Below are positions 1,607 through 61,968 of a stretch of 64,000 bases of DNA, piece by piece. The DNA comes from Thermoflexales bacterium (lineage in GTDB: Bacteria; Chloroflexota; Anaerolineae; J036; Brachytrichaceae), in the NCBI GenBank assembly GCA_034430115.1, contig DAOUFG010000078.1, forward strand, positions 10,606-74,605. The letters are read 5' to 3'. The notes under the pieces are model-generated. The model saw only the letters and a list, made by a program, of their open reading frames with translations, did no database searches and was not told where the DNA came from. Every line of letters starts with the position of its first letter. The stretch's first letter is position 1. The position numbers were made by a program, and so were the translations under genes.

Positions 1607-3106
1607 CTACTCTCCAATCTCTTCTTTTGCCCTCTGCGCCAGCACCTTCGCCCGCGCCGGCGCATCCCCGACATAGACGCTGGCGTCCAGCAAGGCGCGC
1701 GCGGTGGCGGCATCCACGTAGCGCGTCACCTGCGGGTCGGCACACAGCGAATCGATCAGCGGGTTCGGCTCGCCCGCGCTGACTCTGGCCCACGCTCGCA
1801 GGCTGTGCTGGCGGATCAACTCGTGCATCTGTTGCCGGTCGGCCCCGGCCTTCACGGAGACCATCAGCAACCGCTCGGTTGCGGCGAAGGGGCCATAGAC
1901 GCGCATGTTATGTGCCACCTGTGCCTCGTTTACGCGCAAGCCCTTCACCAGGCGCGTCGCCACGCGGATGATCTCATCGGCGCTGAGGAAAGCCTCGGCC
2001 AGCACCACGCGCCGGTTGGCCGAGTCGTCCAGCGTGCGCTCCAGCAGCGAGTGCGCCGCGTTGTCCCACATCACGCGCGGCAGGCCGGCCATGAAACGCG
2101 CCAGCGAATCGATCTTCTCGGCGTTGATCGGGTTGCGCTTGAACGGCATGGCCGACGAACCCACCTGTTTAGCGCCGAAGGGTTCGGCCCACTCGCCGAT
2201 GGGCGGCGACTGCAAAATGCGCAGGTCGAAGGCGAACTTATACAGCGACTGTGCGATGCCGGCCAGCACGTTCACCGCCAGCCAGTCCTGCTTGCGCGTA
2301 TATGTCTGCGTCGCCGCCGTGAACGCCTCCAGCCCCAGCTTTGCCAACACGCGCTCCTCTAAACTCTTATCCACGAATTGGCGCGAATCATCACCAATAG
2401 ATTCGCTTCCATTCGTGGAGATTCGTGGATGCCCTAATTCCATGTACGACGCGCTGGTGCCGACGGCGCCCTTCAGCCCTTTGCCTTTGATGCCGCCCAG
2501 GCAACTGAGCAGGGCGTCCAGGTCCATCAGCAAATCCTGCAAATACTGCGCCAGCCGATAGCCCAGCGTAGTCGGCTCGGCCGGTTGCAGGTGCGTGAAG
2601 GCCATCGTGGGCAGGTCGGCATACTGCGCCACCTTCTCGGCCAGTTCGCCGATCAGCCCGCGCAACGACGTGTGGATCAGCGCCAGCGCGTCGCGCAAGC
2701 GCAAGGCGTCGGCGTTGTCCTCGATGTCCATCGAGGTCGCGCCCAGGTGAATGACGCCGCCGCCTACCGGGCACTGCTCGGCATAGGCGCGCACCTCGGC
2801 CATCAGGTCGTGCTGGATGTCGCGTTCGATCTCCAGCGCCCGCGCGATGCTCGCCTCGGTCACGTCTTCGGCGTGCGCCCGCAGGTCGGCCAGTTGTTCG
2901 GCGCTGACGATGCCCATTTCGTGCTCGGCCTCGGCCAGCGCCACCCACACCCGCCGCCACAGCAGCCGCTTATTGCGCTCGCTCCAAATCGCGCGCATCG
3001 CCTCACTGCCATAGCGGGTGGTGAATGGAGATTGGTAATTAGAGATAGCAGATTGGAGATTAGAGATTGAGTTCACAGATATTCCCTTTACAACTTCCAT
3101 TTTCAT
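1607..3106 (-). CDS. purB: Adenylosuccinate lyase. The start is uncertain because the ORF track extends to 3178 through an AT-rich repeat.
   Basis: Fumarate-lyase family signature GSSAMPFKRNP and MAFTHLQPAEPTTLGY. The N-terminus YQSPFTTRYGS aligns with the PurB start. Candidate starts are ATG at 3106 or GTG at about 3082 preceded by aaggga. Confidence 0.9.
   Translation of the reverse strand: MKMEVVKGISVNSISNLQSAISNYQSPFTTRYGSEAMRAIWSERNKRLLWRRVWVALAEAEHEMGIVSAEQLADLRAHAEDVTEASIARALEIERDIQHDLMAEVRAYAEQCPVGGGVIHLGATSMDIEDNADALRLRDALALIHTSLRGLIGELAEKVAQYADLPTMAFTHLQPAEPTTLGYRLAQYLQDLLMDLDALLSCLGGIKGKGLKGAVGTSASYMELGHPRISTNGSESIGDDSRQFVDKSLEERVLAKLGLEAFTAATQTYTRKQDWLAVNVLAGIAQSLYKFAFDLRILQSPPIGEWAEPFGAKQVGSSAMPFKRNPINAEKIDSLARFMAGLPRVMWDNAAHSLLERTLDDSANRRVVLAEAFLSADEIIRVATRLVKGLRVNEAQVAHNMRVYGPFAATERLLMVSVKAGADRQQMHELIRQHSLRAWARVSAGEPNPLIDSLCADPQVTRYVDAATARALLDASVYVGDAPARAKVLAQRAKEEIGE
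3026..3072. repeat. GATTGGAGAT-type repeat cluster (ggagattggtaattagagatagcagattggagattagagattgag) overlapping the predicted 5' end of purB
   Basis: Direct reading. The AT-rich codons (tct aat ctc caa tct) contrast with the GC-rich body of purB. Confidence 0.6.
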
Positions 3107-5294: not shown

Positions 5295-6092
5295 ATGGAT
5301 AGATTTGAAGACCTGGCACAACGGCTGATCGAAAATTCGCTTGCGCGCATCCTGCACGAACGCCTCCAACCCGAAGAAGTGTTGCAGGCGATTGTGCATG
5401 CCATCGAAGACGCCCACACATTGGGCCCCAACAACGAGCCAATTGCGCCGAATCATTTCTGGGTCACCTTGAGCGAGCAGGACCTGGCCCCGCTGGAATA
5501 TCACCAGCCCGACCTGGCCGACCAACTGGCCGAAAGCGTGCGCCAGATGATCGTGCAGATGGGCCTGCGCATGGATATGCCGCCGCGCGTCTTGCTGCAG
5601 GGCGTGATCGACGTGCCCCCGCATCATCTGCGCGTCACAGCGCGCTGGATTCCGCCCGACCTGCCCGTCACCGCGACGACCCAACACCCCGCCCAGCCGG
5701 AGCACGAAGTGACGCTGCCGCGCCGGCCTTTCTTGATCGTGGATGGCCGCCGGCAGATTGCGCTGTCGAGCGAGCTGGTGCGCATCGGGCGCTCACGCGA
5801 AAATGACGTGGTGGTGGATGACCGGCGGGTCTCGCGGCATCATGCCGAGTTGCGCTGGCAGACGGAGGCGCAAAAGTTCCTCTACCTGGACATGGACTCC
5901 ACCGGCGGCACCAAGCTGAACGGCTACCCAATCCAGCAGTGCACGCTGGAGGCCGGGGACATCCTATCGCTGGGCGGCGTGGAGATCATCTACGGCGAGG
6001 AATTCCAGTTGCAGTCCACGCGCGCCAACGCGCCCATCGACGCCGATACCGACACAAGCACGCCGGCCGGTAATTCACCGCAGAGTCGCTGA
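5295..6092 (+). CDS. FhaA-like protein: DUF3662-type N-terminal domain plus C-terminal FHA domain
   Basis: N-terminus MDRFEDLAQRLIENSLARIL resembles the FhaA N-domain. C-terminus GRSRENDVVVDDRRVSRHHAEL...DSTGGTKLNG is a canonical FHA motif. Confidence 0.6.
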   Translation: MDRFEDLAQRLIENSLARILHERLQPEEVLQAIVHAIEDAHTLGPNNEPIAPNHFWVTLSEQDLAPLEYHQPDLADQLAESVRQMIVQMGLRMDMPPRVLLQGVIDVPPHHLRVTARWIPPDLPVTATTQHPAQPEHEVTLPRRPFLIVDGRRQIALSSELVRIGRSRENDVVVDDRRVSRHHAELRWQTEAQKFLYLDMDSTGGTKLNGYPIQQCTLEAGDILSLGGVEIIYGEEFQLQSTRANAPIDADTDTSTPAGNSPQSR

Positions 6093-6265
6093 GAACTTTG
6101 TCTCACCACAGAGTCACGGAAAGCACAGAGGATTCTATGTCTTGATTCTCTTGGCGGTTTATTCATTCGCACCGCAGAGTCGCCGGGGACGCAGAGAATT
6201 CACTTTATATCCTTTGCTTCTCTGCTTCTTTGCTCCTTCGCGGTTTGCTATGGTGATGAGGTTGC
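6075..6265 (+). repeat. Upstream copy of the GNAT-flanking direct repeat (tctcaccacagag...atgtcttgattctcttggcggtt ... ctttgcttctctgcttctttgc)
   Basis: 23-nt and 22-nt near-identical blocks are shared with 7062-7196. Confidence 0.7.
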
Positions 6266-6284
6266 CCGGCATAGGAGGGACTCA

Positions 6285-7061
6285 ATGAATGCTGTTCATC
6301 CGGCACGCTATTACTTGGACTGCATCGACAAAGGAATTTGCCTTTACTGGCGTTCACTGGGCAAAGCCCGCAACATGGAAATTCACGCCGGCGACATCGA
6401 ATACGTCCTCTCCACCCCGCGCGGCGGCCCGGAACGGATTTATAGGGTGAGCCTGGCGCCGGAAACGGCGGAACAACGCATCGCAGAAATCGGCGCGGGC
6501 ATTCGAGCCGGCAGCTTGCCCAACGGCATGCTCATCACGCCTGCCAGCACCCCCGAAAACCTGGTTGCTTTGCTGGTCAGGCACGGTTTCAGCATCGACA
6601 CAGCCGACCCCTGCATGGCCTTGGACCTGTGCAATCTTCGGAAGCCTTCCCCCACCGATGAAGCAATCCAGGTATTCACCCTGACGGACGACACCCGCTT
6701 GAGGCAGTGGGCCGATATTCTGAATGTGGCCTTATGCGGGTCGGAGATCATGCGCTACGAACAGTTGCATGATCTCTACGATCTCAACTATGCCACATTC
6801 TTTATGGCCCTCTATGAAGATGTGCCGGCTGCGGTGTCGATGACGCTCCGCGAAGGTGACACGGCCACGCTGGAGTTCGTCGCGACGCTCAAGGAACAGC
6901 GCCATAAGGGGCTCGGACGTGCCGTGGTAGGCGCTGCACTACGGCACCTGCGCGACGCGGGAATCGTGACCGTCACGCTGCGCGCCGAGCAGGATGGCAT
7001 TCGTCTCTACCAGCACATGGGGTTCATGGAAATCTGCAAGCGGACGGTGGCATATCTCTGA
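6285..7061 (+). CDS. GNAT-family N-acetyltransferase with N-terminal extension
   Basis: C-terminal acetyl-CoA binding motif QRHKGLGRAVVGAAL. SD aggaggg lies upstream of the ATG. Confidence 0.6.
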   Translation: MNAVHPARYYLDCIDKGICLYWRSLGKARNMEIHAGDIEYVLSTPRGGPERIYRVSLAPETAEQRIAEIGAGIRAGSLPNGMLITPASTPENLVALLVRHGFSIDTADPCMALDLCNLRKPSPTDEAIQVFTLTDDTRLRQWADILNVALCGSEIMRYEQLHDLYDLNYATFFMALYEDVPAAVSMTLREGDTATLEFVATLKEQRHKGLGRAVVGAALRHLRDAGIVTVTLRAEQDGIRLYQHMGFMEICKRTVAYL

Positions 7062-7196
7062 TCTCACCACAGAGAGCACGGAGAACGCCATGTCTTGATT
7101 CTCTTGGCGGTTAGGTCAGATTCACACAAAGAAACGAAGCAACAAAGACCACAAAGACTTCCCATTCTTTGCTGCTCTGCTTCTTTGCGGTTTAAC
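7062..7196 (+). repeat. Downstream copy of the GNAT-flanking direct repeat
   Basis: tctcaccacagagagcacgg...atgtcttgattctcttggcggtt ... ctttgctgctctgcttctttgcggttt. It abuts the acpS stop. Confidence 0.7.
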
Positions 7197-7570
7197 TACA
7201 TCGCGACGACGAACGCCACGGCATACTCCCGCTCGTGGGTCAGCGAGATGGACCACTCCTTCAGGCCCAACTCCTCCGCCCGGCGTGCCGCGCCACCATA
7301 CAGACGCACCAGCGGCTTGCCGCGCAGGTCGCCAATGACTTCGGCCTCGTGCCACAGGATGCCGTCGCGCGCCAGGATGCGCATTCCCACCCCCAGCGCT
7401 TTGCCCACCGCCTCCTTGGCGGCAAACCGCACGGCCAGTTCCGGCACGCGTTCGCGGCAATACAGGCGCTCCATCGGCGTGTACACCCGCTCCAGGAAGC
7501 GATCACCAAACTCGTGGATCGCCCGCTCCACGCGCGGGACGTAGATAATGTCAACACCAGTCGTTAGCAT
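7196..7570 (-). CDS. acpS: Holo-[acyl-carrier-protein] synthase (4'-phosphopantetheinyl transferase)
   Basis: GVDIIYVPRVE, FAAKEAVGKALGVG and WSISLTHEREYAVAFVV are characteristic of AcpS. ATG at 7570; the ORF-track extension to 7660 runs through a repeat. Confidence 0.8.
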   Translation of the reverse strand: MLTTGVDIIYVPRVERAIHEFGDRFLERVYTPMERLYCRERVPELAVRFAAKEAVGKALGVGMRILARDGILWHEAEVIGDLRGKPLVRLYGGAARRAEELGLKEWSISLTHEREYAVAFVVAM

Positions 7571-7663
7571 GATATTTACGATTTTGGATTGACGATTGCC
7601 GATTAACGCCTGCCATTGAAGAGAAGGGCAAATCGTCAATCCGCAATCTACAATCGTCAATCC
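7571..7663. repeat. GATTG-type palindromic element (ggattgacgattg ... caatcgtcaatcc twice)
   Basis: Perfect 13-nt inverted repeat with the right arm duplicated, between the M16 peptidase stop and the acpS start. Confidence 0.6.
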
Positions 7664-8962
7664 TCAGGCTCCTGCCGTCGTCAGGATGAAGTTTTGCGGG
7701 TCCAGCCACTTTTGTGCAGCGGCGCGAATATCGGCCAGGGTCACGCTGTGCACGCGTTCGGAATAGTGCAGCAGGTAATCCAGCCCCAGGTCGTAACGCA
7801 CCATATTGGCGATGTGGCCGGCAATGCCTTCGTTCGTCTCCATCTGCAACGGCAACGAACCGACGAAGTAGGACTGGTTATCCTCCAACTCCGTTTGCTT
7901 CACCTTGCGCTCGCGAATCCGCCGCACCTCGGCCACCGAGATGTCCACCACGCGGTTCACTGTGTTGGGGTTCGTGCCGGCGCTGATCGTCCACGCGCCG
8001 GGGCCGGGGCCACCCTCAAAGCGGCTGCCGATGTAATATACCAACCCCTCTTCCTTGCGCACGCTCTCGCCTAGCCGGCCATACATGCCAAACTGGCCCA
8101 GGATGCTGTTCATCAACACGCAACTGATCCAGTCCGGCTCATAGCGCGACGGGCCTGGAATGCCCCAGATCAGCGTCGTCTGGCTCTTGCCCGGCATGGA
8201 GATATCCTTGCGCGATTGCCCGCTCACGCGTGGCACGGGCGGCATTTCGGGGCGCGCCGGGCGCACGGCTTCCCAATCGCCAAAGGCCGCCTGCACGCGT
8301 TCACAGGCCTCCTGCGCCTTGAGCGCTCCCACGACGACCACCACCATCCCTTCCGGGGCGTAATAGGTGCGATGAAAATCCGCCACGTCGTCGCACGTAA
8401 TCGCCTGCGCCGTCTCGGGGTAACCCTCCACCGAGTAGTGATAGGGATGCGTATCGGGGTAGCACATCTCGCGGAAGGCCAGGCCCGCCCGCGCACTGGT
8501 GCTGTTGGCGCGCTCCTCCAGTCCGGCGAGCCACTCGCCGCGTTCCTTCTCCACCCCTTCCGCGGGGAAGGTGGGGCGGCGAATCACGTCGCTCAGCATA
8601 TCCAGCATGAAAGGCATGTCCTCGGCCAGGCTCTTGGAAAAGAACCCCGTGGAGTGCATACCCGAAGAGACGCTCAAATTCGCGCCGATGGACTCGGTCA
8701 ATTCAAAGAGCTGCTCGTAGCTGAAGCGCTCCGTGCCGCGCATCAGGCAGTCCGACACGAACGAGGCCAGCCCCGCCTTGGCAGGCATTTCATCGCGCGC
8801 GCCAACGTTCAAATAGCCGCTCACCACCACCGCCGGGCTGGCGAAGTTTTCGTAGGCAAAAACGCGAATGCCATTTTTCAGTTTGAGCTGCACGATGTTG
8901 GCCTCACAAGGCAGCGACTGTGCCACCGCGCGCTTCGCTTGATACTTTTGTCTGCTTGGCAT
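7664..8962 (-). CDS. M16-family peptidase, non-catalytic (beta-type) subunit
   Basis: M16-like architecture with no HxxEH motif. Immediately downstream of the active M16 gene. Confidence 0.65.
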   Translation of the reverse strand: MPSRQKYQAKRAVAQSLPCEANIVQLKLKNGIRVFAYENFASPAVVVSGYLNVGARDEMPAKAGLASFVSDCLMRGTERFSYEQLFELTESIGANLSVSSGMHSTGFFSKSLAEDMPFMLDMLSDVIRRPTFPAEGVEKERGEWLAGLEERANSTSARAGLAFREMCYPDTHPYHYSVEGYPETAQAITCDDVADFHRTYYAPEGMVVVVVGALKAQEACERVQAAFGDWEAVRPARPEMPPVPRVSGQSRKDISMPGKSQTTLIWGIPGPSRYEPDWISCVLMNSILGQFGMYGRLGESVRKEEGLVYYIGSRFEGGPGPGAWTISAGTNPNTVNRVVDISVAEVRRIRERKVKQTELEDNQSYFVGSLPLQMETNEGIAGHIANMVRYDLGLDYLLHYSERVHSVTLADIRAAAQKWLDPQNFILTTAGA

Positions 8963-10361: not shown

Positions 10362-11759
10362 TTACGATCCTTTATTGGTGGCGACAGGCTTCACGTCATT
10401 CCAATCCACTTTCGGTTGTGCGCCATTGCGGCCATTCGCGTAAGCCTGACCATAGCCACGGCCTAGGCCGCGGTAGATGAAGCCCATTTCATACATGACA
10501 GTTGGGTCATACAGGTTGCGCCCATCGATGAAGATCGGCAACTTCATGGAGCGCTTCACACGCTTCAAGTCCAAGTTCTTAAATTCGTTCCAGTCCGTCG
10601 CCAGGACGACCACGTCACACCCCTCGGCCAAATCGTAGGCGTCCTCGCACAGCTTGACCTCCTTCAACACGCGCGCGGAGTTTGGCATCGCCACCGGGTC
10701 ATAGGCTTTCACCAGCGCGCCCTGCTCCTGGAACAGATGTGCCAGGTCGATGCCGGGTGAATCGCGGATGTCGTCGGTGTTGGGCTTGAACGCCAACCCC
10801 AGGATGCCAACTGTCTTGCCGTTCAGGCCGCCGGCCAGTTCACGCGCCTTGGTGATCACGCTGCGGCGCTGGTCGGCATTGATCTGCATCACAGCCTGCA
10901 ACATTTGCGGGTGCTTGCCTTGCACGTTCGCCATGTGCATCAATGCGCTGACGTCCTTCGGGAAACACGAGCCGCCGTAGCCCAGCCCGGCATCCAGGAA
11001 GGCACGCCCAATGCGCTTGTCATAGCCCATGCCCACGGCCACTTCCTTCACATCCGCACCCAGCGCCTCGCAGATATTGGCGATCTCGTTAATGAACGAG
11101 ATCTTGGTCGCCAGGAATGCGTTGGAGGCATACTTGATCATTTCAGCGGTGCGCAGGTCGGTAACCACAATCGGCGCGCGCAATGGGAAGTAGAGTTGCG
11201 CCACGCGCTCGGCTGCGCTGCGGTCCAACGAGCCCAACACGATGCGGTCGGGGTTCAGGAAGTCGCTGATGGCGGAACCCTCGCGCAAAAACTCGGGGTT
11301 GCTCACCACACTGAAGGGAACGGGCTGGGGTTGCTTGTGAACCACGATGTCGGCCACCCAGTCACCTGTGCCGACGGGCACCGTGCTCTTATTGACGATG
11401 ATGACGGGGTGATCGATCATCTCGGCCACCGTCTCGGCCACCGCGCGCACGTAACGCAGGTCCGCCTCGCCATCCACGCCCTCGGGTGTACCCACGGCCA
11501 CGAACACCATCTCCGCCGGGGCCTCCGGGTTGTTCAACGCCTCCGCGTAGGAAGTGGTGAATGACAGGCGCCCCGCATTGACATTGCGACGCACCATTTC
11601 TTCCAACCCCGGCTCGTAAATCGGCATGACGTTTTGCCGCAACTTGGCGATGCGCTCCTCGTTCACGTCCAGGCACACCACCCGATTGCCCATATCGGCA
11701 AAACACGTTCCTGTAACCAGCCCAACGTAACCAACGCCAATGACAGTGATATTTCTCAT
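10362..11759 (-). CDS. ugd: UDP-glucose 6-dehydrogenase
   Basis: N-terminal Rossmann [14 protein letters not shown] and catalytic GGSCFPKD motif. Confidence 0.9.
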
Positions 11760-11764
11760 TTCTT

Positions 11765-11935
11765 TCCCCCAAACAAAAACGAGATTGGAGTTGGAGATGC
11801 GAGATTGGTTAATTCACCACAAATCAAAACGACTGTACAGGTGAGGGTTCCACCTGCATGATCGATGTCATCCGTAGTTGAGAGCGCCCAATCTCCATCT
11901 CAAATCTCTAATCTCTAGTTACCAATTAATCCCCA
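11765..11935. repeat. MITE-like element with about 35-nt imperfect terminal inverted repeats of GATTGGAGAT units flanking a roughly 65-nt core
   Basis: gagattggagttggagatgcgagattggttaatt ... aatctccatctcaaatctctaatctctagttaccaattaat, between the ugd start and the asd stop. Confidence 0.55.
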
Positions 11936-51225: not shown

Positions 51226-52752
51226 ATGTTCAAGCGACTAACGACCCGCCTGGTGCTCAGCCAGCTATTCGTGATCGGCGCGGCGACGGCAATTTTGATC
51301 TTCGTCTTGCTATCGCTGGTGCAAAACTACTTCGTGCAAGCCACGCTGGATAGCCTGCTCATTCAGGCCCGCCTGAGCGCACAAATGGTGACGCCCGGCA
51401 GCGCTACCGCACTTAACAACATCCAGCAGTCGCAACTGCCGTCGGCGTCCAACAGCATCCAGAACAATGCCCAAAGCCCATCCGCGCTCCAGGTGCAGAA
51501 CGTCACGCCGACGCTCGATCTCTCGCAAAGCCTGCCGGCACTGAGCAATGGCTTGCGCCTGAGCCTGGACCTGGAAACGCGCGTGCGCATCGTCAATGCG
51601 AATGGGATGGTTGAGTCCGACAGCGCCGGCACCGACCTGGGGCACAACGTCGGCGACGTGCCCGCCGTAAAGGCAGCGCTGGCGAACCAGGAGTCCGCCT
51701 ACGCCGAAGGCACCGAAGCCCTTGCGGCGGTTCCCTTGCCGCGCGTGGGTCGCGTGGTCGGCGTGGCCTTCCTCAGCCAGCCGCTGCGCGACGTCAGCAA
51801 CGTCATGGCCGACCTGCGCGCACGACTGCTGATTTCGGCGGCGATTGCGCTCATCTTTGCGGCGCTGGTGGGAGTGTTCCTGGCGCGTGGCATCGCCCGC
51901 CCTGTGCGCCAACTGACCATCGCCGCCAACGAACTGGCGCAAGGCGAATTTGACTACCCGTTGGAGGCTTCCTCGCCCGATGAACTGGGCGACCTGGCGC
52001 GCGCCTTTCGCCGCATGCGTGACGACCTGCAACAGATGTTACAGGCGCGCACCGACCTGGTGGCGAACGTCAGCCACGAGTTGCGCACGCCGCTGACGGC
52101 CATCAAAGGGCTGGTGGAAACATTGCGCGCCGGCGCCGTGGAAGATACCGCCGTGCGCGACACGTTCCTGGCTTCCATCGAGCAACAGACCGACCGCCTG
52201 ACTCGTCTGGTGAACGACTTGCTGATCCTTTCGCGTGCCGACTCACAGGCGCTGGCCCTGCAAGTGCGCCCGGTGGACCTGACGGCCCTGGCACATGCGT
52301 GCGTGCAGCAACTGGCCCCCAGGGCTGCGGCCACCCAGGTGACGCTGAAGGTGGAAGGCCCGTCCCTCACGGCGACTATCGACCCCGACCGGATTCAGCA
52401 GGTGCTGGTCAACTTGCTGGACAATGCCATCCGCTTCTCGCCACCCGGCGAGACGGTGAACGTCCGCATTTCCCAGGCGACGGATGGCGTGCGCGTCGCA
52501 GTGAGCGATCAGGGGCCTGGGATGGACGAAGCGGAGCAAGCGCGCGTGTTCGAGCGCTTCTACCGGGGCGATAAATCCCGTGTGCGCAGGGATGATAGCG
52601 GTGCAGGGCTGGGGCTCTCCATTGCCGAGGCACTGGTGCGCGCACATGGCGGCGAGATTGGCATCCATAGCCGGCCCGGTCACGGCACCAGCGTGTGGTT
52701 CACGCTTCCGAAGGGAGGGATTGGAGATGAGAGATTAGAGGCTGGAGATTAG
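51226..52752 (+). CDS. Sensor histidine kinase (HAMP plus HisKA plus HATPase)
   Basis: H-box HELRTPLTAIKG, N-box DNAIRFSP, G-boxes DQGPGM and GAGLGLSI. Two N-terminal TM segments. Confidence 0.9.
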   Translation: MFKRLTTRLVLSQLFVIGAATAILIFVLLSLVQNYFVQATLDSLLIQARLSAQMVTPGSATALNNIQQSQLPSASNSIQNNAQSPSALQVQNVTPTLDLSQSLPALSNGLRLSLDLETRVRIVNANGMVESDSAGTDLGHNVGDVPAVKAALANQESAYAEGTEALAAVPLPRVGRVVGVAFLSQPLRDVSNVMADLRARLLISAAIALIFAALVGVFLARGIARPVRQLTIAANELAQGEFDYPLEASSPDELGDLARAFRRMRDDLQQMLQARTDLVANVSHELRTPLTAIKGLVETLRAGAVEDTAVRDTFLASIEQQTDRLTRLVNDLLILSRADSQALALQVRPVDLTALAHACVQQLAPRAAATQVTLKVEGPSLTATIDPDRIQQVLVNLLDNAIRFSPPGETVNVRISQATDGVRVAVSDQGPGMDEAEQARVFERFYRGDKSRVRRDDSGAGLGLSIAEALVRAHGGEIGIHSRPGHGTSVWFTLPKGGIGDERLEAGD

Positions 52753-52954
52753 GAGAACCACGGATGACACGGATTGCACGGATTAAATCTGAGTCATCCG
52801 TGGTTGATTCAATCCCACATCTCCAATTTCTTTTTTGTGTTCTTTGTTGCTTTGTTTCTTCGTGTAGAGATATTCTTTACGATTGCCTCACGCTTGCCAC
52901 AGCGCTGACACATCCCTCTTCTACACTGGGTTCAATTTCTCACTGGAGGCAAAC

Positions 52955-53969: not shown

Positions 53970-54929
53970 ATGGATTATCCATCGATCAAAGGGTTTAACT
54001 ACCAACCCAGCTACGGCAGCAACGGGTTCGAGCTATGGCAGAAGTTTGACGCGGCCGTCATCGAGCGCGAACTGGGCGCGGGCAAGCGTTACTTCCCAGG
54101 CATGAACGCCATTCGCGTTTGGCTCGCGTGGGATTCTTTCAAGCGCGCCCCCGAGAAGTTCGCCGCCAATTTCGAGGCGCTATTAACCATCGCCGCGCAG
54201 CATGATCTGCTGGTCATGCCGGTGTTGTTCAATCGCTGGCATGATAAGGCGCTGGATTACGGTGGCATTTATGTCGATCATTTCCTGCCCCGCGTGAGTT
54301 GGGTCCAACAGGCCGATATGTTCAAGCCCTACCTGGAAATGATCGTGGGGCGGCACGCCACCGACGCGCGCATCTTTGCCTGGGACCTGTGCAACGAGCC
54401 GTTCTCCTACTCCTGCCCGGTCGAAGAAATCCGGGCGATTTACGACGCCGAGTTCGCCTGGCTCTGCGGGTTACAGCAAACCTGCAAACAGCTTGGCGCC
54501 GCCGCACCGATCACCGTCGGCATCCATCCCGGGCATGGACGGGCAGGGCTGGAACTCATCTCGCAAATCAGCGACATCCTCAGCATTCACCCCTACTGGA
54601 CCGCCGACAGCCCCATGCACGACAAGGCCGTCTACGAGCATCTGCTGGATGAATATGTGGACGTGGCCGCGCAAGCCAACAAGCCCTTGCTGGCCACCGA
54701 GACTTGCTGGGGCGCGCTGGACGACGCAAAGCGGGTGGAGATCATCCGCTACACGCTGGGCGAACTGAAGCAGCGCAAGATCGGCTGGCTGGCCTATCTA
54801 CTGCATCATAGCCTGATCGCCGATGCGCACCGGCCCGAGTTCGGCCCCGTCACGGAACCGGGCAACCTGGCCTTCATCGAAGCCGACGATACTTTGCGGC
54901 CTGGGCACGAGATTTTCAACGCATTTTGA
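53970..54929 (+). CDS. Clan GH-A (TIM-barrel) glycoside hydrolase, GH5/GH113-like
   Basis: IRVWLAWD and the catalytic acid/base motif WDLCNEPF (NEP). Confidence 0.5.
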   Translation: MDYPSIKGFNYQPSYGSNGFELWQKFDAAVIERELGAGKRYFPGMNAIRVWLAWDSFKRAPEKFAANFEALLTIAAQHDLLVMPVLFNRWHDKALDYGGIYVDHFLPRVSWVQQADMFKPYLEMIVGRHATDARIFAWDLCNEPFSYSCPVEEIRAIYDAEFAWLCGLQQTCKQLGAAAPITVGIHPGHGRAGLELISQISDILSIHPYWTADSPMHDKAVYEHLLDEYVDVAAQANKPLLATETCWGALDDAKRVEIIRYTLGELKQRKIGWLAYLLHHSLIADAHRPEFGPVTEPGNLAFIEADDTLRPGHEIFNAF

Positions 54930-55196: not shown

Positions 55197-55982
55197 ATGA
55201 TGCTCAATAATGCCTGGTCTTTCGTCATTGCCTGGTACAACCTCCCATTCACCATCTTGCTGGTGCTGGCATGTATCTTGGCTGCATTACAACTGGTGGG
55301 GTTGGGAGGAGAGGCTGACCAGGACACAGATATGGATAGCGATGCGGAGATCGACCTCCACGCAGACGTGGATGCCGACGCGGACCTGTCGGTCGATCAC
55401 GACTTGGATCTCGACCATGATGTGGATTTTGACCACGACGCTGACCTCGATCACGATGCCGACCTGGACCATGACGTAGATCACGATGCAGGCGTAGAAG
55501 GCGCGCCCAATGCGCTCACGCTGCTGGCATTCGTCGGCATGGGCAAAGCACCGCTCGCGGTGGTGTTGCTCATCCTCTTCGGCGCAATTGGGATTTTGGG
55601 TTGGCTACTCAATAGCCTGGCGCTTAGCCTGTTCGGGTCCTACCCAGGCATCGCACTTGCCGCCGTTGTGCCACTCAGCCTCGTCGCGGGCGGGCTGGTC
55701 AGTTCGCGCATCAGCCGGCTGATCGGGCGCGCGCTGCCGCCCGTCAGCACCACAGCCATGCGTGCTCAGGCCCTGGTGGGCCGGCGCGGCACGGTAATCA
55801 GCCCCTACGTGGACGCTAAATATGGGATGGTGCACCTGCGCGACCAGGGCGGTACGCTCATCAGCGTATTTGCGGTGAACCCCAGCGAACAAGTCATCAA
55901 GCGCGGTGGCGACGTGGTGCTGGTCTCTTATGATCCGCTCAAACGCCAATACACCATCGCGCCGCTGGATCATCCTCAATAA
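55197..55982 (+). CDS. NfeD-like (YuaF-type) membrane protein with C-terminal OB-fold, plus an inserted acidic His/Asp repeat
   Basis: TM helices, C-terminal LVGRRGTVISPY...GDVVLVSYDP OB-fold pattern. Directly upstream of the flotillin gene. Confidence 0.65.
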   Translation: MMLNNAWSFVIAWYNLPFTILLVLACILAALQLVGLGGEADQDTDMDSDAEIDLHADVDADADLSVDHDLDLDHDVDFDHDADLDHDADLDHDVDHDAGVEGAPNALTLLAFVGMGKAPLAVVLLILFGAIGILGWLLNSLALSLFGSYPGIALAAVVPLSLVAGGLVSSRISRLIGRALPPVSTTAMRAQALVGRRGTVISPYVDAKYGMVHLRDQGGTLISVFAVNPSEQVIKRGGDVVLVSYDPLKRQYTIAPLDHPQ

Positions 55983-56075: not shown

Positions 56076-58178
56076 ATGCCAAACACGACTTCCTTTGACG
56101 TGGCACCCTTGATCACCCTCGCAGTGGTCATCGTCGTGGCCCTGATTGCGCTTGCGCTGATGCGTTCCATCATGCGCGCATATATCAAGACGCCCGCCAA
56201 CCGCGCCTTCGTGCGCACCGGCGGCCTGTTCCGCAAGCCCAACGACCCGCCGAAGGTGGTGATGAACGGCGGCGCGTGGGTATTCCGCACCATCCACGAG
56301 GTCACCTGGGTGGACCTGGGCACGATGGCGATCGAGATCGAGCGCACCGAGAATAACGCTCTGCTGACCATCGACCCGCAGTATGCAGACATCAAGGCGA
56401 TCTTCTACATCAAAGTGAACCCCACGGTGGAAGGGATCATCGACGCGGCACGCACCATCGGCGGGCGCCAGGTGGACGCCAACGCCGTGAAACAACTGGT
56501 GGATGCCAAGCTGGACGGCGCACTGCGCGACGTGGCCGCTTCGTTCACGTTGATGAGCCTGCACCAGGAACGCGAAAAGTTCATCCAGGAAGTGCAGAAC
56601 CGCCTGAAGACCGACCTGGAAGAGAACGGCTTGATGCTAGAGGCCGTGTCCATCCTCACCCTGCGCGCAGCGCGCCAGGGTTCCTTCGGCACCGACGACG
56701 TGTTCGGCGCACAGGTGGCACGCGCCAACGCGCAGGTGATCCAACAGGCGCAGCGCGAACGGAATGACATCGAGCGGCGCACAGAGATCGAAATAAAGCA
56801 ACGCGATACCGATACGGCCAAACAACGCCTGGACCTGGATCAGCAACTGGCGCTGGCCGCCGCCGCCCAGGAGCGCGAAGTGCGCACCATGCAGGCTGCC
56901 GAGAAAGCACAGGCCGACCAGAAGGTGTTCGAGGAATTGCAGAAATCGGAGATGGCGCGCGTGGCAAAGGAGCGCGCCGTGGCGCTGGCCGAGCTGGAAC
57001 GCGATCAGCAATTGGCGATCCAGAATGAACGGAAACAGCAGGAAGTGGCAAGCGCGGAAGTGACGCGCCGGCAAACGCTGGAATTGGCCGAACAGCAGCG
57101 CCAGATCAACGTGCTGGTGGAGCAGCAGAAGCGCACCGCCTCGGAGAAGGAATTGCTGGTCGTCGCGGCACAACGCATGGATGCCGAACAGGCCGTGAAG
57201 ACGGTGGAAGCCACCCAACAGGCGCAACGCGATGCCCGCATCAAGGTGATCGAAGCAGAACGTGAGGCGCAGGAAGCCATGATCGATCAGAAGAATAAGA
57301 TCGAACTGGAAGCGCTGCGCAAGCAACGCGAAGCCGAAGCGCAGGCCAAGGCGTTGAAAGAGACCGCCGCCGCACAGGCCGAAGCGGCATTGAAGCAGGC
57401 CGAAACGTTGCGCACCCAGGCCGAGGCGGAAATGGAAGCCGAGAAGATGCGCGCCGATGCAGCGCGCGCCTCCGCTTCGGCCACAGGTCTGGCTGAGGCG
57501 GAAGTGGCCAAGGCGAAGGCTGAAGCCGGATTGCGCGAAGCAGAAGCGGTGCGCGTGAAGGGCGTGGCCCAGGCCGAAGCGATCCGCGCCCAGGGGTTGG
57601 CCCAGGCCGAGAGCGATAAGGCGAAGGCTGAGGCGCTGGCCGCCTACGATGGCGTGGCACAGCGCGTGGAATTGATGAAGCTACAACTCGACGCTCAGGT
57701 GCGCATCGAAGTGGCTAAGTCGCAGGCGCTGGGCAGCGCGATGGCCGCGATGAACATCAAGCTGATCGGCGACCCGAACGCCGCTTCGTCACTGCTCAAG
57801 ATGGTGACGCTGGCCGATGGGTTGGGCGATGTGGTCAAAGCGACCCCGCAGCCCCTGCGTGAGATTGGGCAACAGTTGCTCAACAAGGCCACCGGCAACG
57901 CCGATGGCGATGCGCTCCTGAAGGCGAATGACGGGCACGGCGCAAGCCTGAGCGAACTGGCGCTGCTGGTGCCTCAGATTGTGAGCATCACCGAAAAGAC
58001 GCTCGACGTGAGCACGCTGAAGGGCCAGACGGTGGGCGAGGTGCTGGCTACGTTGGTGAAACAGGTCAAGGATGAAGACCGCCCGGCGGTGCAGAAGGCT
58101 CAGCAAGCTGCCGAGGCCCTGCCGATCATCAACAACCTGCCCTTTGAAGATTTCTATCTGCGCGCCACAACGAAGTAG
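56076..58178 (+). CDS. Flotillin-like SPFH/band-7 protein with a long Ala/Glu-rich coiled coil
   Basis: N-terminal TM segment, SPFH domain, then a roughly 300-aa EA-repeat coiled coil, as in FloT/YuaG. Confidence 0.8.
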   Translation: MPNTTSFDVAPLITLAVVIVVALIALALMRSIMRAYIKTPANRAFVRTGGLFRKPNDPPKVVMNGGAWVFRTIHEVTWVDLGTMAIEIERTENNALLTIDPQYADIKAIFYIKVNPTVEGIIDAARTIGGRQVDANAVKQLVDAKLDGALRDVAASFTLMSLHQEREKFIQEVQNRLKTDLEENGLMLEAVSILTLRAARQGSFGTDDVFGAQVARANAQVIQQAQRERNDIERRTEIEIKQRDTDTAKQRLDLDQQLALAAAAQEREVRTMQAAEKAQADQKVFEELQKSEMARVAKERAVALAELERDQQLAIQNERKQQEVASAEVTRRQTLELAEQQRQINVLVEQQKRTASEKELLVVAAQRMDAEQAVKTVEATQQAQRDARIKVIEAEREAQEAMIDQKNKIELEALRKQREAEAQAKALKETAAAQAEAALKQAETLRTQAEAEMEAEKMRADAARASASATGLAEAEVAKAKAEAGLREAEAVRVKGVAQAEAIRAQGLAQAESDKAKAEALAAYDGVAQRVELMKLQLDAQVRIEVAKSQALGSAMAAMNIKLIGDPNAASSLLKMVTLADGLGDVVKATPQPLREIGQQLLNKATGNADGDALLKANDGHGASLSELALLVPQIVSITEKTLDVSTLKGQTVGEVLATLVKQVKDEDRPAVQKAQQAAEALPIINNLPFEDFYLRATTK

Positions 58179-58338
58179 AACGCGGGAGTTGGGGATTGGA
58201 GACTAGAAATTGGAGATGGTCGGTGCCTGGAGACTGGGTTTCGAAGTGAAACCTGCATTCGGGCACTGTGTAGGGGAGCATCACTAGACTGATCAACATT
58301 GGGAACGTAATAATGCGGAAGACACGAGCGAGGTCATC

Positions 58339-58641
58339 TTGCCACATTACAGAATCCAATTTTCGATTGAAGCGCTCGAACACATACGCTTACTGACAGC
58401 AAGACAACGCACATCTATTCTGGATAAGATCGAAAAACAGTTGTCGCATGAGCCGAGAGTGGAGACAAGAAACCGGAAGCTCATGCGACAAAATACACTT
58501 GCCGTTTGGGAATTACGTGCCGGCGATTTACGTGTGTATTATGATGTTCAAGACAAACCGGAAATAGTCGTGATCGTCCGGGCAGTTGGCGTCAAAGACC
58601 ATGAAATAGTGCGTATTGCCGGGAAGGAGTTTAAGCTGTGA
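58339..58641 (+). CDS. RelE/ParE-family toxin-like protein
   Basis: IQFSIEALEHIRLL...KL..Q..LAVWELRAGDLRVYYDVQDKPEIVVIVRAVGVKDHE fits the RelE/ParE fold pattern. Confidence 0.5.
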   Translation: MPHYRIQFSIEALEHIRLLTARQRTSILDKIEKQLSHEPRVETRNRKLMRQNTLAVWELRAGDLRVYYDVQDKPEIVVIVRAVGVKDHEIVRIAGKEFKL

Positions 58642-58988
58642 GTGTAGTCAAAATCGAGAGAAATGAGGCAACAGCCAGCCTGGCCGACTATGTCGGTCAA
58701 GTAGGCGGTAGCCCGATTGTGATCACTGAAAGCGGGAAACCCGTCGCTGTGCTCCTATCCGCCAACGCCGCCGACCTTGAAACGCTGTCCTTAACCTCAA
58801 ATGCGGAGTTCTGGAAGATCATAGAGCGTTCACGCACGCGTGACGAGAACGAAGGCACCATCTCACTAGAGGACGTTCGCCTCATGTTTGCGCACGATGG
58901 GGCCACCACACGCGTTGCCGATGAAGATGCGGATTACCGGGTAGACAACACTCCCGAGCCTCCTGATGAAGCCGGATCAGAAGAATGA
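58638..58988 (+). CDS. Phd/YefM-family antitoxin-like protein (located downstream of the toxin)
   Basis: SPIVITESGKPVAVLLS is the hallmark Phd/YefM N-terminal motif. GTG start overlaps the upstream TGA (GTGA). SD gggaaggag. Confidence 0.55.
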   Translation: MSVVKIERNEATASLADYVGQVGGSPIVITESGKPVAVLLSANAADLETLSLTSNAEFWKIIERSRTRDENEGTISLEDVRLMFAHDGATTRVADEDADYRVDNTPEPPDEAGSEE

Positions 58989-59608
58989 ACTTGCTTAATC
59001 GTCTCTCACTCGCCCTGCGCGCGGCGGCCAGCGACCTCTTTAGCGAAGAAGCACCTGCCCCGCAAGACAAGGCCGCACAGCTCTTGAAAACGGCTCAGCA
59101 GCGCGTGGACAGGCTGAACGAGCAGCTTGCACAGGCCGTTGCGCGCGAGAAGCGCGCCGAACAGGACTGGCGCACCGCCCGCGCCGGGGTTGAGGCGTTG
59201 GAAGCCGAAGTGGATGCAGCGGTGCGCGCGCACCAGGATGAAACGGCCCGTCTGAAGCTGGCGCAGGTGAACCAGGCACAGAACAAGCTGCAACAACTCA
59301 GCGATAGCTGGAAAGCCTATGCCGCTTCCAGCGAGAAGCTGCGCATCGAGATGCAGGACCTGCACACCCAACTGGCAGCGGCGCAACAGCGCTTACAACA
59401 GTTGGGCGAGCGCGAGGGCAATGCCGGCGGCATGGAAACACTGCAACAGGCGCGCCGCGAACAGCGCAACGAAGCGGCCCAGGTACACCAGGAACTTGCG
59501 GCACGCGAAGAGCAAACCGCCCGCCGCGAAGATCACATCGCCGCGCGCGAAGAGCTGGATCAAACGCGCATCGCCGATTTGCTCAAAAAACACGACAAGG
59601 AATCGTGA
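58985..59608 (+). CDS. PspA/IM30/Vipp1-like coiled-coil protein
   Basis: N-terminal amphipathic MNLLNRLSLALRAAASDLFSEE...P resembles the PspA start. The remainder is heptad-repeat coiled coil. ATGA overlap with the upstream gene. Confidence 0.45.
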   Translation: MNLLNRLSLALRAAASDLFSEEAPAPQDKAAQLLKTAQQRVDRLNEQLAQAVAREKRAEQDWRTARAGVEALEAEVDAAVRAHQDETARLKLAQVNQAQNKLQQLSDSWKAYAASSEKLRIEMQDLHTQLAAAQQRLQQLGEREGNAGGMETLQQARREQRNEAAQVHQELAAREEQTARREDHIAAREELDQTRIADLLKKHDKES

Positions 59609-60111
59609 CGACGATGGCCCTGACATCCGAACAACAACACGCGCTGGACGAGCTATTCAATGTAGGAGTAGGGGCGCACGGCTGTGCGCCCTTGACCGGT
59701 GCGCCCCTACCAAACACGCCGGCCGCTGCTGGGCAGGACGGCCTCGCGCCCTACATCGCCAAATTGCAGTCGCTCCTACAGACCAAAGACCATCTGACGC
59801 TGCAAGCGTTGGACATTGCCGAGAACAACCCATTGGACGCCGCGATGGGCTTCCTGGCCGCGGCCTCGCTGGCGTTCTATGCCGCGGAGAAGGGTCACAA
59901 CCCCAAGGTCACAACGTACATCGACGCCTTCTATTACATCTCTACCTGCGCATCCGTCGGCTATGCCGATATCTTTGCCTGCACACAAACCGGGCGCGCC
60001 ATCGCGGCATTGGTGATGATCGTCGGCCCGGCGCTTGCCTCGCACGCGCTCGACCGGCCGGCAGCAAACCTCACACAAAGCGACCCGGTGCCAAAGGATA
60101 AACAGGCGTAA
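59605..60111 (+). CDS. Two-TM KcsA-like ion-channel protein (Ion_trans_2) with a non-canonical filter
   Basis: M1 helix, pore helix plus filter YIDAFYYISTCASVGYADIF (TVGYGD-like), M2 helix GRAIAALVMIVGPALA. GTGA overlap with the upstream gene. Confidence 0.5.
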   Translation: MTTMALTSEQQHALDELFNVGVGAHGCAPLTGAPLPNTPAAAGQDGLAPYIAKLQSLLQTKDHLTLQALDIAENNPLDAAMGFLAAASLAFYAAEKGHNPKVTTYIDAFYYISTCASVGYADIFACTQTGRAIAALVMIVGPALASHALDRPAANLTQSDPVPKDKQA

Positions 60112-60192
60112 AAAGCGCCGAAGCACACGCGTTGTGCTTCGGCCAAGATGACCAATTCCTTTTATCCGTGTTCATCTGCATTTATCTGTGGT

Positions 60193-61968
60193 TCAATTCT
60201 TTGCTTCCAACACCGCCCGGATGCGCCGCACACCCTGGCCGACCGCTTCTTGCTTGACGATTGTGAAGCTGCCCAATTCGCCCGTGTGTGTGACGTGCGG
60301 CCCGCCGCACACTTCCTTGGAAAACCCGTCGATGGTATAGACCTTCACCTGCTCGCCATACTTCTCGCCAAAGAAGGCCAGCGCGCCCGCCGCCAGCGCC
60401 TGATCCAACGCCATCGTCTCGCACGAGACGGGCACATCCCGCCCGATCTGCTCATTCACGATTTGCTGCACCTGATGCAATTGCTCGTCGCTCAGCTTGC
60501 TCGGATAGGAAAAGTCGAAGCGCAGGCGCTCTGCCGTGATGTTCGAACCCTTCTGTTGCACGCTGGGCCCCAGCACCTGCCTGAGCGCCGCGTGCAACAG
60601 GTGCGTGGCCGTGTGCAGGCGGGTGGTTTGTTCGGCATGGTCGGCCAGCCCGCCCTTGAACTTCTGCTCCGTGCCGCGCCGTGAAAGGTCGCGGTGTTCA
60701 AGCTCAAGCGCCTCAAAACGCGCCGCATCCACCTGCAAACCTTGCTCACGCGCCAGTTCGGCGGTCAATGCCAGCGGGAAGCCAAACGTCTCGTATAGGT
60801 TAAAGGCTTCCTCGCCAGGGATGCAGGTGATCTGCTTGCGGCGCAGGCGCTCCGCCACCTTATGATATTCATGCAGGCCGCGTTCCAGCGTGGCTTTGAA
60901 CTTCGTTTCCTCGCGCGCCATCTCCTCGGCGATCACCTGCTTGTTCTGCTCCAAGACAGGGTAGGCCCCGGCGAAGATGCCCAACACCGCCTCCGAAAAG
61001 CCGGCGCAGAAATCCTCCTGGATGTCCAGTTCCCGCCCGTAGCGGATCGCCCGCCGCAACAGGCGACGCACGATGTACCCGGCTTCCACGTTCGATGGCT
61101 TCGCGCCGTCGGCAATGGCAAACGTCGCCGCGCGCAGATGGTCCGCTACGATGCGGAAGGGGCGCGGGTCATCGGCATAGCGCCGGCCGGAGAGGCTTTC
61201 CAGGGCGTCGATCAACGGGCGCAGCGTGTCGATCATGTAAATGTCGTCATATCCATTCAGCACGGCCACGCTGCGATCCAGCCCCATGCCGGTATCCACG
61301 TTAGGCCGCGGCAACCGCTCCAGGTTGCCCGCTGCGGTGCGTTGATAGGTCATGAACACGTTGTTCCAAATCTCAAACCATTTGCCGCAGCCGCACCCCG
61401 GCCGGCAGCCTGGATGATCCGGCCGGCCCGTGTCATAGAAGATTTCCGAATCGGGGCCGCACGGGCCGGTATTGCCCACCGGGCCCCACCAGTTGTCCTC
61501 TTTAGGCAAAAAGTAGATGCGATCCGCCGGCATGCCCAGCGCGCGCCAAAGCTCCGCCGATTCATCGTCGCGCGGGGCATCGGCATCGCCGGCAAACACA
61601 GTCACCGCCAGCCTGTTCAACGAGATGCCCAACACGCGGGTCAGAAACTCATAGCTCCAAGCCAGCGATTCCTGATTGAAATAATCGCCCAACGACCAGT
61701 TGCCCAACATCTCAAAGAAGGTCAGATGCGAGCTATCTCCCACCTCATCGATGTCGCCGGTGCGGAGGCAACGCTGGGCGTTCACCAGCCGGCGGCCCAT
61801 TGGGTGCGCCTCACCCAGCAGGTAGGGCACCAGCGGCTGCATACCGGCGGTGGTGAAGAGAACGGTCGGGTCGTTCTCGGGCAGCAGCGGCGCGGAAGGG
61901 ATGCGCTTGTGCCCGCGTTCTTCAAAAAACCGCTGGTAAATCTCTCTCATCTCTGTGACTTGCATCAT
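60193..61968 (-). CDS. alaS: Alanine--tRNA ligase, compact form (catalytic plus tRNA-recognition plus editing core; no C-Ala domain)
   Basis: Class II motifs (FTTAGMQPLVPY, HLTFFEMLGNWSLGDYF), editing-site HTATHLLH and CGGPH. 591 aa compared with about 870 aa typical. Confidence 0.8.
   Translation of the reverse strand: MMQVTEMREIYQRFFEERGHKRIPSAPLLPENDPTVLFTTAGMQPLVPYLLGEAHPMGRRLVNAQRCLRTGDIDEVGDSSHLTFFEMLGNWSLGDYFNQESLAWSYEFLTRVLGISLNRLAVTVFAGDADAPRDDESAELWRALGMPADRIYFLPKEDNWWGPVGNTGPCGPDSEIFYDTGRPDHPGCRPGCGCGKWFEIWNNVFMTYQRTAAGNLERLPRPNVDTGMGLDRSVAVLNGYDDIYMIDTLRPLIDALESLSGRRYADDPRPFRIVADHLRAATFAIADGAKPSNVEAGYIVRRLLRRAIRYGRELDIQEDFCAGFSEAVLGIFAGAYPVLEQNKQVIAEEMAREETKFKATLERGLHEYHKVAERLRRKQITCIPGEEAFNLYETFGFPLALTAELAREQGLQVDAARFEALELEHRDLSRRGTEQKFKGGLADHAEQTTRLHTATHLLHAALRQVLGPSVQQKGSNITAERLRFDFSYPSKLSDEQLHQVQQIVNEQIGRDVPVSCETMALDQALAAGALAFFGEKYGEQVKVYTIDGFSKEVCGGPHVTHTGELGSFTIVKQEAVGQGVRRIRAVLEAKN

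Follow-up and report, generated by a model that had tools for sequence, protein, structure and literature searches.

The 64,000-nucleotide (nt) stretch of Thermoflexales bacterium DNA analyzed here (contig DAOUFG010000078.1 of assembly GCA_034430115.1, forward-strand positions 10,606 to 74,605; hereafter the window) carries four tightly packed genes at 58339-60111, encoding a RelE/ParE-like toxin, a Phd/YefM-like antitoxin, a PspA/IM30-like protein and a KcsA-like channel protein. We consider it quite probable that this locus is a composite of two parts, a conserved membrane operon and a horizontally acquired, autonomous toxin-antitoxin (TA) cassette. The first part would be a vertically inherited operon of a yqiJ/nfeD-like gene, a flotillin gene, pspA and the gene for the small KcsA-like pore protein. 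The second would be a type II cassette, with the gene for a RelE/ParE-fold toxin first, that for a Phd/YefM-type antitoxin second and a 4-nt overlap between them, that inserted into the short flotillin-pspA junction in an ancestor of the window organism and its nearest relatives. The same junction would later have gained and lost TA cassettes of two unrelated families.

The initial annotation of this DNA had called the four co-oriented open reading frames (ORFs) and assigned them to the four families named above. The ORFs were borne out at these coordinates, and profile searches and structure comparison support every assignment. We also confirmed its placement of the run directly downstream of an nfeD-flotillin pair, with a GATTGGAGAT-type repeat in between. 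Judged by gene neighborhood, the actual companions of pspA and the channel gene are those upstream nfeD-like and flotillin genes, which had been treated as a separate unit.

Conservation of the membrane operon

On the plus strand of the window, the operon begins with the gene for a yqiJ/nfeD-like membrane protein (55197-55982, 261 amino acids [aa]). It is followed by that for a flotillin/YqiK-like SPFH protein (56076-58178, 700 aa), which lies directly upstream of the toxin gene and in the same direction. The third gene encodes a PspA/IM30/Vipp1-family protein (58985-59608, ATG start, 207 aa) and the last a two-helix, pore-loop (KcsA-like) protein (59614-60111, ATG start, 165 aa). A scan with the channel alignment, taking one genome per species, gave 53 related loci (these and the further loci compared carry the prefix L below), to which the window proteins were compared by tblastn. 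In 39 of the 53, the sequence extends 3 kb or more upstream of the channel gene, and the operon counts rest on these 39. The arrangement that recurs in the species loci is yqiJ-like, flotillin, pspA and channel, in the same order and orientation. A flotillin gene lies upstream of the channel gene in 36 of 39 loci, with products 70-93% identical to the window flotillin, and pspA lies between the two in 31 of 39; yqiJ-like homologs precede flotillin in most of the 53. In nearly all loci the flotillin and channel genes are 525-810 bp apart, leaving room for pspA only, and the larger values in L023 and L034 are probably artifacts of locating the flotillin end. As far as gene order can tell, the four-gene membrane operon is conserved across Chloroflexota (Anaerolineae, Thermoflexales, Ardenticatenaceae and others). 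Outside this phylum, the yqiJ-like, flotillin and channel genes stand together without pspA in L057 (Armatimonadetes) and L058 (Polyangiaceae).

The family assignments of the operon proteins rest on profile matches. The yqiJ-like protein scored 34.3 bits against Pfam YqiJ_N (cut-off 23), and the flotillin matched Pfam Band_7 above its cut-off (E=5e-15) and NCBIfam FloT at a sub-threshold 44.9 bits (cut-off 700). PspA matched Pfam PspA_IM30 (PF04012) over residues 2-195 with 37.8 bits (cut-off 33.9). A profile built from 26 orthologs, 22 of which match PF04012, aligned with Vipp1/PspA structures over the full length from residue 1 (E=5e-18). By these matches the window PspA is a full-length member of the PspA/IM30 family, including the predicted N-terminal amphipathic helix. 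The yqiJ-like gene also contains an 18-nt tandem repeat (55393-55486) encoding an Asp/His-rich segment, (D-H-D-x-D-x)n, which sits between the first membrane helix and the remainder of the protein and has similar counterparts in homologs of other phyla (L021, L057 and L058); it may bind metal ions or protons. NCBIfam matches of this protein to MSCRAMM (Ser-Asp-repeat) adhesins were discarded as spurious, being due to the Asp-rich repeat.

Identity of the toxin-antitoxin pair

The toxin gene (58339-58641, plus strand, TTG start, 100 aa) encodes a RelE/ParE-superfamily protein. Its match to Pfam ParE_toxin (E=2e-4) falls just under the cut-off, and a sequence search of the PDB returned only RelE/ParE-type toxins. 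An AlphaFold model built with 30 homologs as input had a predicted local distance difference test (pLDDT) score of 90.9. In a Foldseek comparison of this model with the PDB, nearly all top matches were toxins of the RelE/YoeB/ParE/YafQ type, with probability ~1.0 and TM-scores up to 0.84; the best were 2khe, 3g5o (0.74/0.84) and 9g12, and the structures matched include Thermus thermophilus RelE and Mycobacterium tuberculosis RelE2 and RelE1. By its predicted structure, then, the toxin has the RelE/ParE fold. It belongs to a family of proteins of ~99 aa, with 340 homologs in many phyla, and keeps all family-invariant residues.

The antitoxin gene (58638-58988, plus strand, GTG start, 116 aa) encodes a protein that scored 24.8 bits against TIGR01552 (cut-off 20.8) and 27.8 against Pfam PhdYeFM (PF02604), just under the cut-off of 29.8. 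Searched singly against the PDB, the antitoxin gave chance-level matches (rotavirus VP4, MIC-A), which were rejected; the search is informative only with a family profile, and a profile of four sequences matched M. tuberculosis RelB1 (9g12_C, E=0.007). With moderate confidence, we assign the N-terminal domain to the Phd/YefM type, the matches covering the N-terminal half only. The window antitoxin further carries an acidic C-terminal tail of ~25-30 residues beyond the 82-104 aa typical of the family, and its stop codon is the TGA embedded in the ATG-AAC of pspA. A search inside this tail for a remnant of the DUF433/DUF5615 genes discussed below found none.

The initial annotation had regarded the toxin-first order as atypical, which does not hold for this family. 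We surveyed 80 metagenomic toxin loci, 77 of which have room for a downstream antitoxin; a homologous antitoxin gene lies directly downstream on the same strand in 77 of 77, with a 4-nt ATGA/GTGA overlap in 76. Toxin-first pairing is found as well in L009, L063 and L065, and Phycisphaerae RAS1 has the same toxin-antitoxin arrangement. Since the metagenomic loci share both the toxin-first order and the 4-nt overlap, these are traits of the family rather than peculiarities of the locus. Homologs of PspA, the channel, flotillin or YqiJ are encoded in none of the 80 loci. The sequence before the toxin gene is at least 1.5 kb long in 31 of the 80, and that after the antitoxin gene at least 900 bp long in 37; PspA or the channel is encoded in none of those 37.

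Known type II RelBE/YefM-YoeB modules (M. tuberculosis RelBE1, Rv1246c-1247c, and RelBE2, Rv2865-2866; T. thermophilus RelE) have the same toxin fold. The N-terminus of the window antitoxin is like theirs, being of Phd/YefM type with a profile match to RelB1, and they too are small two-gene units with overlapping frames and a wide, patchy spread over phyla. In contrast, the window family puts the toxin first, resembling the HigBA-type order, and its similarity to characterized RelBE-type members is low, as the ParE_toxin and PhdYeFM scores just under the cut-offs indicate; the acidic C-terminal tail is a further difference. Among TA systems, the pair is a new representative of a known type.

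The composition of the pair sets it apart from the operon around it. GC content at third codon positions (GC3) is 0.47 in the toxin gene and 0.57 in the antitoxin gene, versus 0.71-0.80 in the four membrane genes, and overall GC dips to 0.455-0.56 across 58200-58900. The ratio of nonsynonymous to synonymous divergence (Ka/Ks) of the antitoxin gene, phd, between the window and L009 is 0.12. Because the invariant toxin residues are kept and this ratio is low, the pair looks intact and functional. The toxin had no tblastn match on plasmids, and a scan with the toxin profile found no relatives on viral contigs; there is therefore no evidence for a plasmid- or phage-borne cassette.

Occupancy of the flotillin-pspA junction

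Among the loci compared, the RelE-Phd pair occupies the flotillin-pspA junction only in the window and in the sister lineage L009, whose RelE and Phd are 72% and 65% identical to those of the window. In L007, L008 and L066, whose channel proteins are ~80% identical to that of the window, the junction holds the C-terminal third of the toxin gene and the first ~12 codons of phd, followed by a DUF433-DUF5615 (PIN-like) pair. In L039 it holds a DUF433-DUF5615 pair only, orthologous to that of L007/L008/L066, and in L016, the sister of L039 with 91% flotillin identity, it is 36 nt long and has no pair. The 297-nt flotillin-to-pspA gap of L018 has no match to the TA pair. Overall, a TA pair was found in the junction in 1 of the 36 flotillin-channel species loci (L039) and, across the species loci compared, is confined to the clade of the window and its sister clade. 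The DUF433-DUF5615 genes of L007 have GC3 values of 0.32/0.53, versus 0.72-0.79 in the membrane genes of that locus. A scenario in which the TA pair is ancestral and was lost elsewhere was rejected, since parsimony speaks against it, the GC3 is foreign and two different families are present. The pair is a foreign and mobile element lodged in a conserved operon.

The initial annotation had put forward, as one hypothesis, that the TA pair, PspA and the channel make up an obligately co-expressed abortive-infection or stress module, with the pair sensing or controlling, the channel dissipating membrane potential and PspA limiting self-damage. Tight spacing, with two credible 4-nt overlaps in the window, is in keeping with such a system, as are the same four genes in the same order in L009 and purifying selection on all four. 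However, the four genes do not co-occur beyond the window and L009. Elsewhere, the TA family is found beside PspA or the channel in 0 of 37 informative loci, the junction holds a TA pair in only the one species locus of 36, and the nearest relatives have an unrelated TA family or none. Moreover, the pair is compositionally foreign, it has no relatives on viral contigs or plasmids, and the genes flanking the operon in the window are of housekeeping type (histidine kinase, SIMPL, GH5-like, alanyl-tRNA-synthetase-like and hydrolase genes). The PADLOC defense-system models, applied to six proteins, gave no match for five and only weak coiled-coil matches for PspA, which we rejected as compositional. 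We regard an obligate single system of this kind as extremely improbable.

Gene overlaps and transcription

Three 4-nt overlaps had been described in the run, GTGA, ATGA and GTGA; the first two stand, and the third most likely does not. The toxin/antitoxin overlap (GTGA at 58638-58641), with an AAGGAG Shine-Dalgarno sequence 8 nt upstream, is genuine. The antitoxin/pspA overlap (ATGA at 58985-58988) is genuine in the window genome but not conserved, since the sister locus L009 has an 8-nt gap in its place; its TGA comes from the ATG-A(A/C) start of pspA itself, a context shared by relatives without the TA pair. The pspA/channel overlap (GTGA at 59605-59608) depends on reading the channel as the longest ORF (59605-60111, plus strand, GTG start, 168 aa). 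There is no record of that 168-aa product, and the 165-aa product starting at ATG 59614 is on record. Indeed, 23 of the 25 other sequences in the channel alignment begin at the aligned Met-x-(L/I/V)-(T/S)-x-E-Q; of the remaining two, one is slightly extended at the N-terminus and the other begins one residue further on. We reset the channel start to ATG 59614 because of this conserved N-terminus and the gene products on record, and the third overlap is most likely a longest-ORF artifact of a mis-called GTG. The corrected spacer between the pspA stop and the channel start is 5 nt in the window. The corresponding gap in other species is mostly 1 to 228 nt, and in L025 the two genes overlap by 10 nt.

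Co-orientation and very tight spacing make co-transcription of the four genes in the window genome likely. The flotillin-to-toxin spacer (58179-58338, 160 bp), where GC drops to 0.46-0.53, contains heptamer repeats and, just 5' of the toxin start, a promoter-like sigma-70 site identified by consensus match only (TAGACT-18-AATAAT, 58285-58314). Because the antitoxin stop lies in the ATGA of pspA, pspA and the channel gene would probably also be read from this cassette promoter in the window genome. Such transcription would be a by-product of the insertion site and not a designed dependency.

Several points weigh against the composite reading. Two TA families, RelE-Phd and DUF433-DUF5615, fill the identical junction, and the final cassette gene ends in the ATGA of pspA in the window, in L007/L008/L066 and in L039, a shared ending that could hint at selection for coupling and not accident. 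Synonymous divergence (Ks) of the DUF433-DUF5615 pair between L007 and L039 resembles that of the flanking genes; therefore, cassettes can persist in the slot for long. The close relatives L067 and L068 keep pspA and the channel gene but are without yqiJ-flotillin, and because they lost these genes the four membrane genes are not inseparable. Co-transcription, the TA promoter and translational coupling we infer from spacing and consensus matches only. Lastly, the filter of the channel is without the second glycine of the K+ signature, a position that is variable family-wide.

Some of the same evidence would suit a lineage-specific domestication, in which the junction repeatedly captures TA cassettes as a regulatory module for pspA and the channel gene, not as a killing system. 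The occupation of one slot by two unrelated families, the recurrent ATGA ending, the persistence of cassettes over divergence with Ks at or near saturation and the promoter-like site just upstream of the toxin all point in that direction. The benefit would lie in a stress-responsive, autorepressed promoter and in stop-start coupling, which together would give useful extra control of pspA-channel. However, most species do without any cassette, L009 has no overlap to pspA, the TGA of the overlap is part of pspA's own start context and is present without a cassette, and short junctions with dispersed repeats are plausible as neutral landing sites. We therefore judge domestication unlikely, and the regulatory benefit proposed for it equally so. 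Very unlikely, in our view, is that selection has kept TA cassettes of two or more families at the junction, their last gene ending in the start codon of pspA, with PspA and the pore protein under TA control in a lineage-specific, cassette-gated membrane response. Such a response would depend on translational coupling and on de-repression of the TA promoter, would be built on a non-canonical cation pore scaffolded by flotillin, and would possibly be abortive-infection-like or persistence-like. We retain the composite of operon and autonomous cassette.

In L067 (3275-5462) and L068, the channel protein is 74% identical to that of the window, the outer flanks are the same and there is no TA pair. 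The pspA-channel genes of L067 directly follow a gene for a 319-aa protein whose window counterpart is the GH5-like gene at 53970-54929. These two loci look as if the first half of the operon had been cleanly deleted.

The small pore protein

The channel protein matched Pfam Ion_trans_2 (PF07885) with 30.4 bits (cut-off 22.5). The pore core of its AlphaFold model has pLDDT values of 84-93, and Foldseek aligned the model with KcsA at 29-30% identity and a root-mean-square deviation of 3.3 A over 83 columns (probability 1.0). As modeled, the fold is that of a pore-loop superfamily member: a first transmembrane (TM) helix (TM1), a pore helix, a loop and a second helix (TM2). The filter-like motif is T-C-A-S-V-G-Y-A-D, of which S-V-G-Y-A-D is invariant within the Chloroflexota clade. 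The channel does not match the canonical signature T-[VI]-G-[YF]-G, having S-V-G-Y-A-D in place of T-V-G-Y-G-D. There are 431 homologs, mostly from Chloroflexota. The wider pore family forms 184 clusters at E<=1e-10, comprises proteins of about 130-180 aa and has the filter S-V-G-Y-x-[DN], where x is A, S, D, C, H or T; in a tally of representatives P0241-P0389 (n=149), the canonical G occupied this position in 9. Going by these filter sequences, K+ selectivity of the pore protein is not to be assumed.

Compared with KcsA and other minimal two-helix K+ channels, the window protein shares TM1, pore helix, filter and TM2 but has a short TM2 and almost no C-terminal domain, and conduction is only predicted. 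A further difference lies in the family-specific helices, which are a cytoplasmic N-terminal one in Chloroflexota and a C-terminal one in other phyla. The N-terminal helix, L-T-x-E-Q-Q-x-A-L-D-E-L, is near-invariant among Chloroflexota pore proteins; those of other phyla have the C-terminal helix L-D-A-I-L-x-E-L-R instead. In the deltaproteobacterial locus L059, a channel homolog (5947-6402) has no flotillin gene nearby and is followed by a gene for a 632-aa protein (6422-8320); the Castor/Pollux and RCK-like domains of this protein are modules that regulate ion channels.

The non-canonical filter and the conserved cytoplasmic helix make it a serious alternative, if one we hold to be only possible and less than probable, that the KcsA-like protein is not a working channel but serves to recruit PspA, as an anchor in the membrane or an adaptor, or else is itself a client of the flotillin scaffold. 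By analogy, it might then play the part of LiaI for LiaH, of PspB/PspC for PspA or of YdjG/YdjH in Bacillus subtilis, a parallel that we put forward with the same reserve. The S-V-G-Y-A-D motif with its variable second-glycine position speaks for such a role, and the near-invariant Chloroflexota helix resembles a partner-binding element. Moreover, B. subtilis has small membrane proteins and an SPFH protein that recruit PspA (PMC8581546, PMC9239133). On the other hand, conservation is strong in the pore helix, the S-V-G-Y core and both TM helices, and the model can be superposed on KcsA; the simplest explanation for a conserved pore-loop architecture is that the protein binds or conducts ions.

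Repeats, hairpins and neighboring genes

The flotillin-to-toxin spacer carries GATTGGAGA-type heptamer repeats at about 58185-58235. The heptamer (TGGAGAT/GATTAGA type) is dispersed across the window, with 16 matches at one mismatch versus 4.2 expected. Its intergenic arrays lie at 3026-3069, at 11783-11810 with an inverted array at 11897-11917, at 52719-52752 with an inverted array at 52815-52830, and at 58185-58235. Relatives have arrays as well (L007, 6381-6410; L009, 6618-6632; L039, 2696-2725), and there too the motif comes after the flotillin stop codon. Some arrays form inverted pairs around a hairpin, such as that at 52757-52805. The heptamer resembles a family of intergenic repeats spread over the genome, which may be a miniature mobile element or an element like repetitive extragenic palindromic (REP) sequences. 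Between the flotillin stop and the TA genes, L007 (6420-6570) and L009 (6640-6700) have long, near-perfect hairpins (for example, AAACCGCCGATGAACGCGG...CCGCGTTCATCGGCGGTT). The window hairpin at 52757-52805 (AACCACGGATGA...TCATCCGTGGTT), which adjoins a heptamer array, is related to them.

Convergent to the operon is an alanyl-tRNA-synthetase (AlaRS)-like gene on the minus strand (60193-61968, 590 aa). The match of its product to the catalytic domain covers profile positions 1-453 of 552, and the product also has a tRNA_SAD domain; at 590 aa it is much shorter than canonical bacterial AlaRS. The gene is kept beside the operon in the close relatives L001-L009, L066 and L067. Between the convergent channel and AlaRS-like genes lies a GC-rich hairpin (60117-60143, minus strand), for which a terminator scan gave 11 pairs followed by GCTTTTTACG, a T-run on the minus strand. 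The 3' end of the plus-strand operon probably lies at this hairpin as well.

Discussion

The functions that we infer for the cassette and for the operon follow from their families. In the cassette, the antitoxin would neutralize the RelE-like toxin by binding it, and the complex would repress the cassette's own promoter. In the operon, the flotillin and its NfeD-like partner would build an SPFH scaffold on the cytoplasmic membrane, and PspA, an ESCRT-III-type polymer, would use its N-terminal amphipathic helix to bind and seal stressed membrane. The small, presumably tetrameric pore protein would be the operon-specific, scaffolded integral-membrane partner. It would most likely be a cation pore whose location or activity the scaffold governs and which adjusts ion balance or membrane potential under stress. 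On membranes, SPFH proteins assemble into domed rings (PMC12624060), and in animals they are linked to the regulation or turnover of ion channels (PMC3433786, PMC13449098). The link between PspA and the membrane is made by an SPFH protein in B. subtilis (PMC8581546). Operons of PspA with band-7/flotillin and YqiJ/YuaF proteins are read as membrane-dynamics and repair assemblies (PMC11237479, PMC9239133).

Operons of this last class have thus been described already (Ravi et al. 2024, PMC11237479; Popp et al. 2022, PMC9239133). As in the class of PMC11237479, pspA is adjacent in the window to a TM, band-7 and flotillin gene and to a YqiJ/YuaF-type gene. In contrast to that class, Pfam finds neither a CesT/Tir-type chaperone nor an AAA+ ATPase among the four operon genes, and because of their absence we view the Chloroflexota operon as a variant. 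The window order is yqiJ, flotillin, pspA, channel, and the operon ends in a KcsA-like pore protein that the consulted passages of these two papers do not mention; the only K+ channel mentioned there is a ligand-sensing one in a separate polyamine operon.

Also similar in layout are yqiJ-yqiK of Escherichia coli and yuaF-floT of B. subtilis (Hinderhofer et al. 2009, PMC2636767), in which an NfeD-like gene is likewise followed by a flotillin-like SPFH gene in one operon. The window operon, however, continues with pspA and the pore protein gene, and some non-Chloroflexota operons continue with the pore protein gene alone. The B. subtilis pspA-ydjGHI operon (PMC8581546) also encodes PspA with an SPFH protein, and its small membrane proteins bring PspA to the membrane; YdjG, YdjH and YdjI there contrast with a YqiJ-like protein, a 700-aa flotillin and a pore-loop protein here, and the gene order differs. 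SPFH scaffolds are paired, genetically or physically, with ion-transporting membrane proteins in flotillin-associated rhodopsin (PMC10308929) and with channels in stomatin-ASIC3 (PMC3433786) and Erlin-IP3 receptor (PMC13449098); in all three the transporters are unrelated to the window protein, and the parallel is by analogy only. In the literature searched we found no description of a flotillin or Band_7 gene in an operon with a K+ channel gene, and searches on "GYA" filters matched only "Gya" (giga-years ago). The conserved small pore protein thus appears to be an undescribed operon partner, an only modestly new element.

The arrangement as initially posed is largely explained away by a routine mobile TA cassette inside a conserved operon, which is a caution against inferring function from tight gene spacing in one genome. 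The junction is at the same time a small natural example of TA cassette turnover at a fixed chromosomal site. A modest interest is left in the association of flotillin, PspA and pore protein and in the non-canonical pore family itself, whose genes, for proteins with an S-V-G-Y-x-[DN] filter, accompany flotillin genes in several phyla and pspA throughout Chloroflexota. The operon offers a simple bacterial system in which the action of an SPFH scaffold and PspA on a pore protein may be followed, and with it any relation of PspA-type membrane repair to ion balance.

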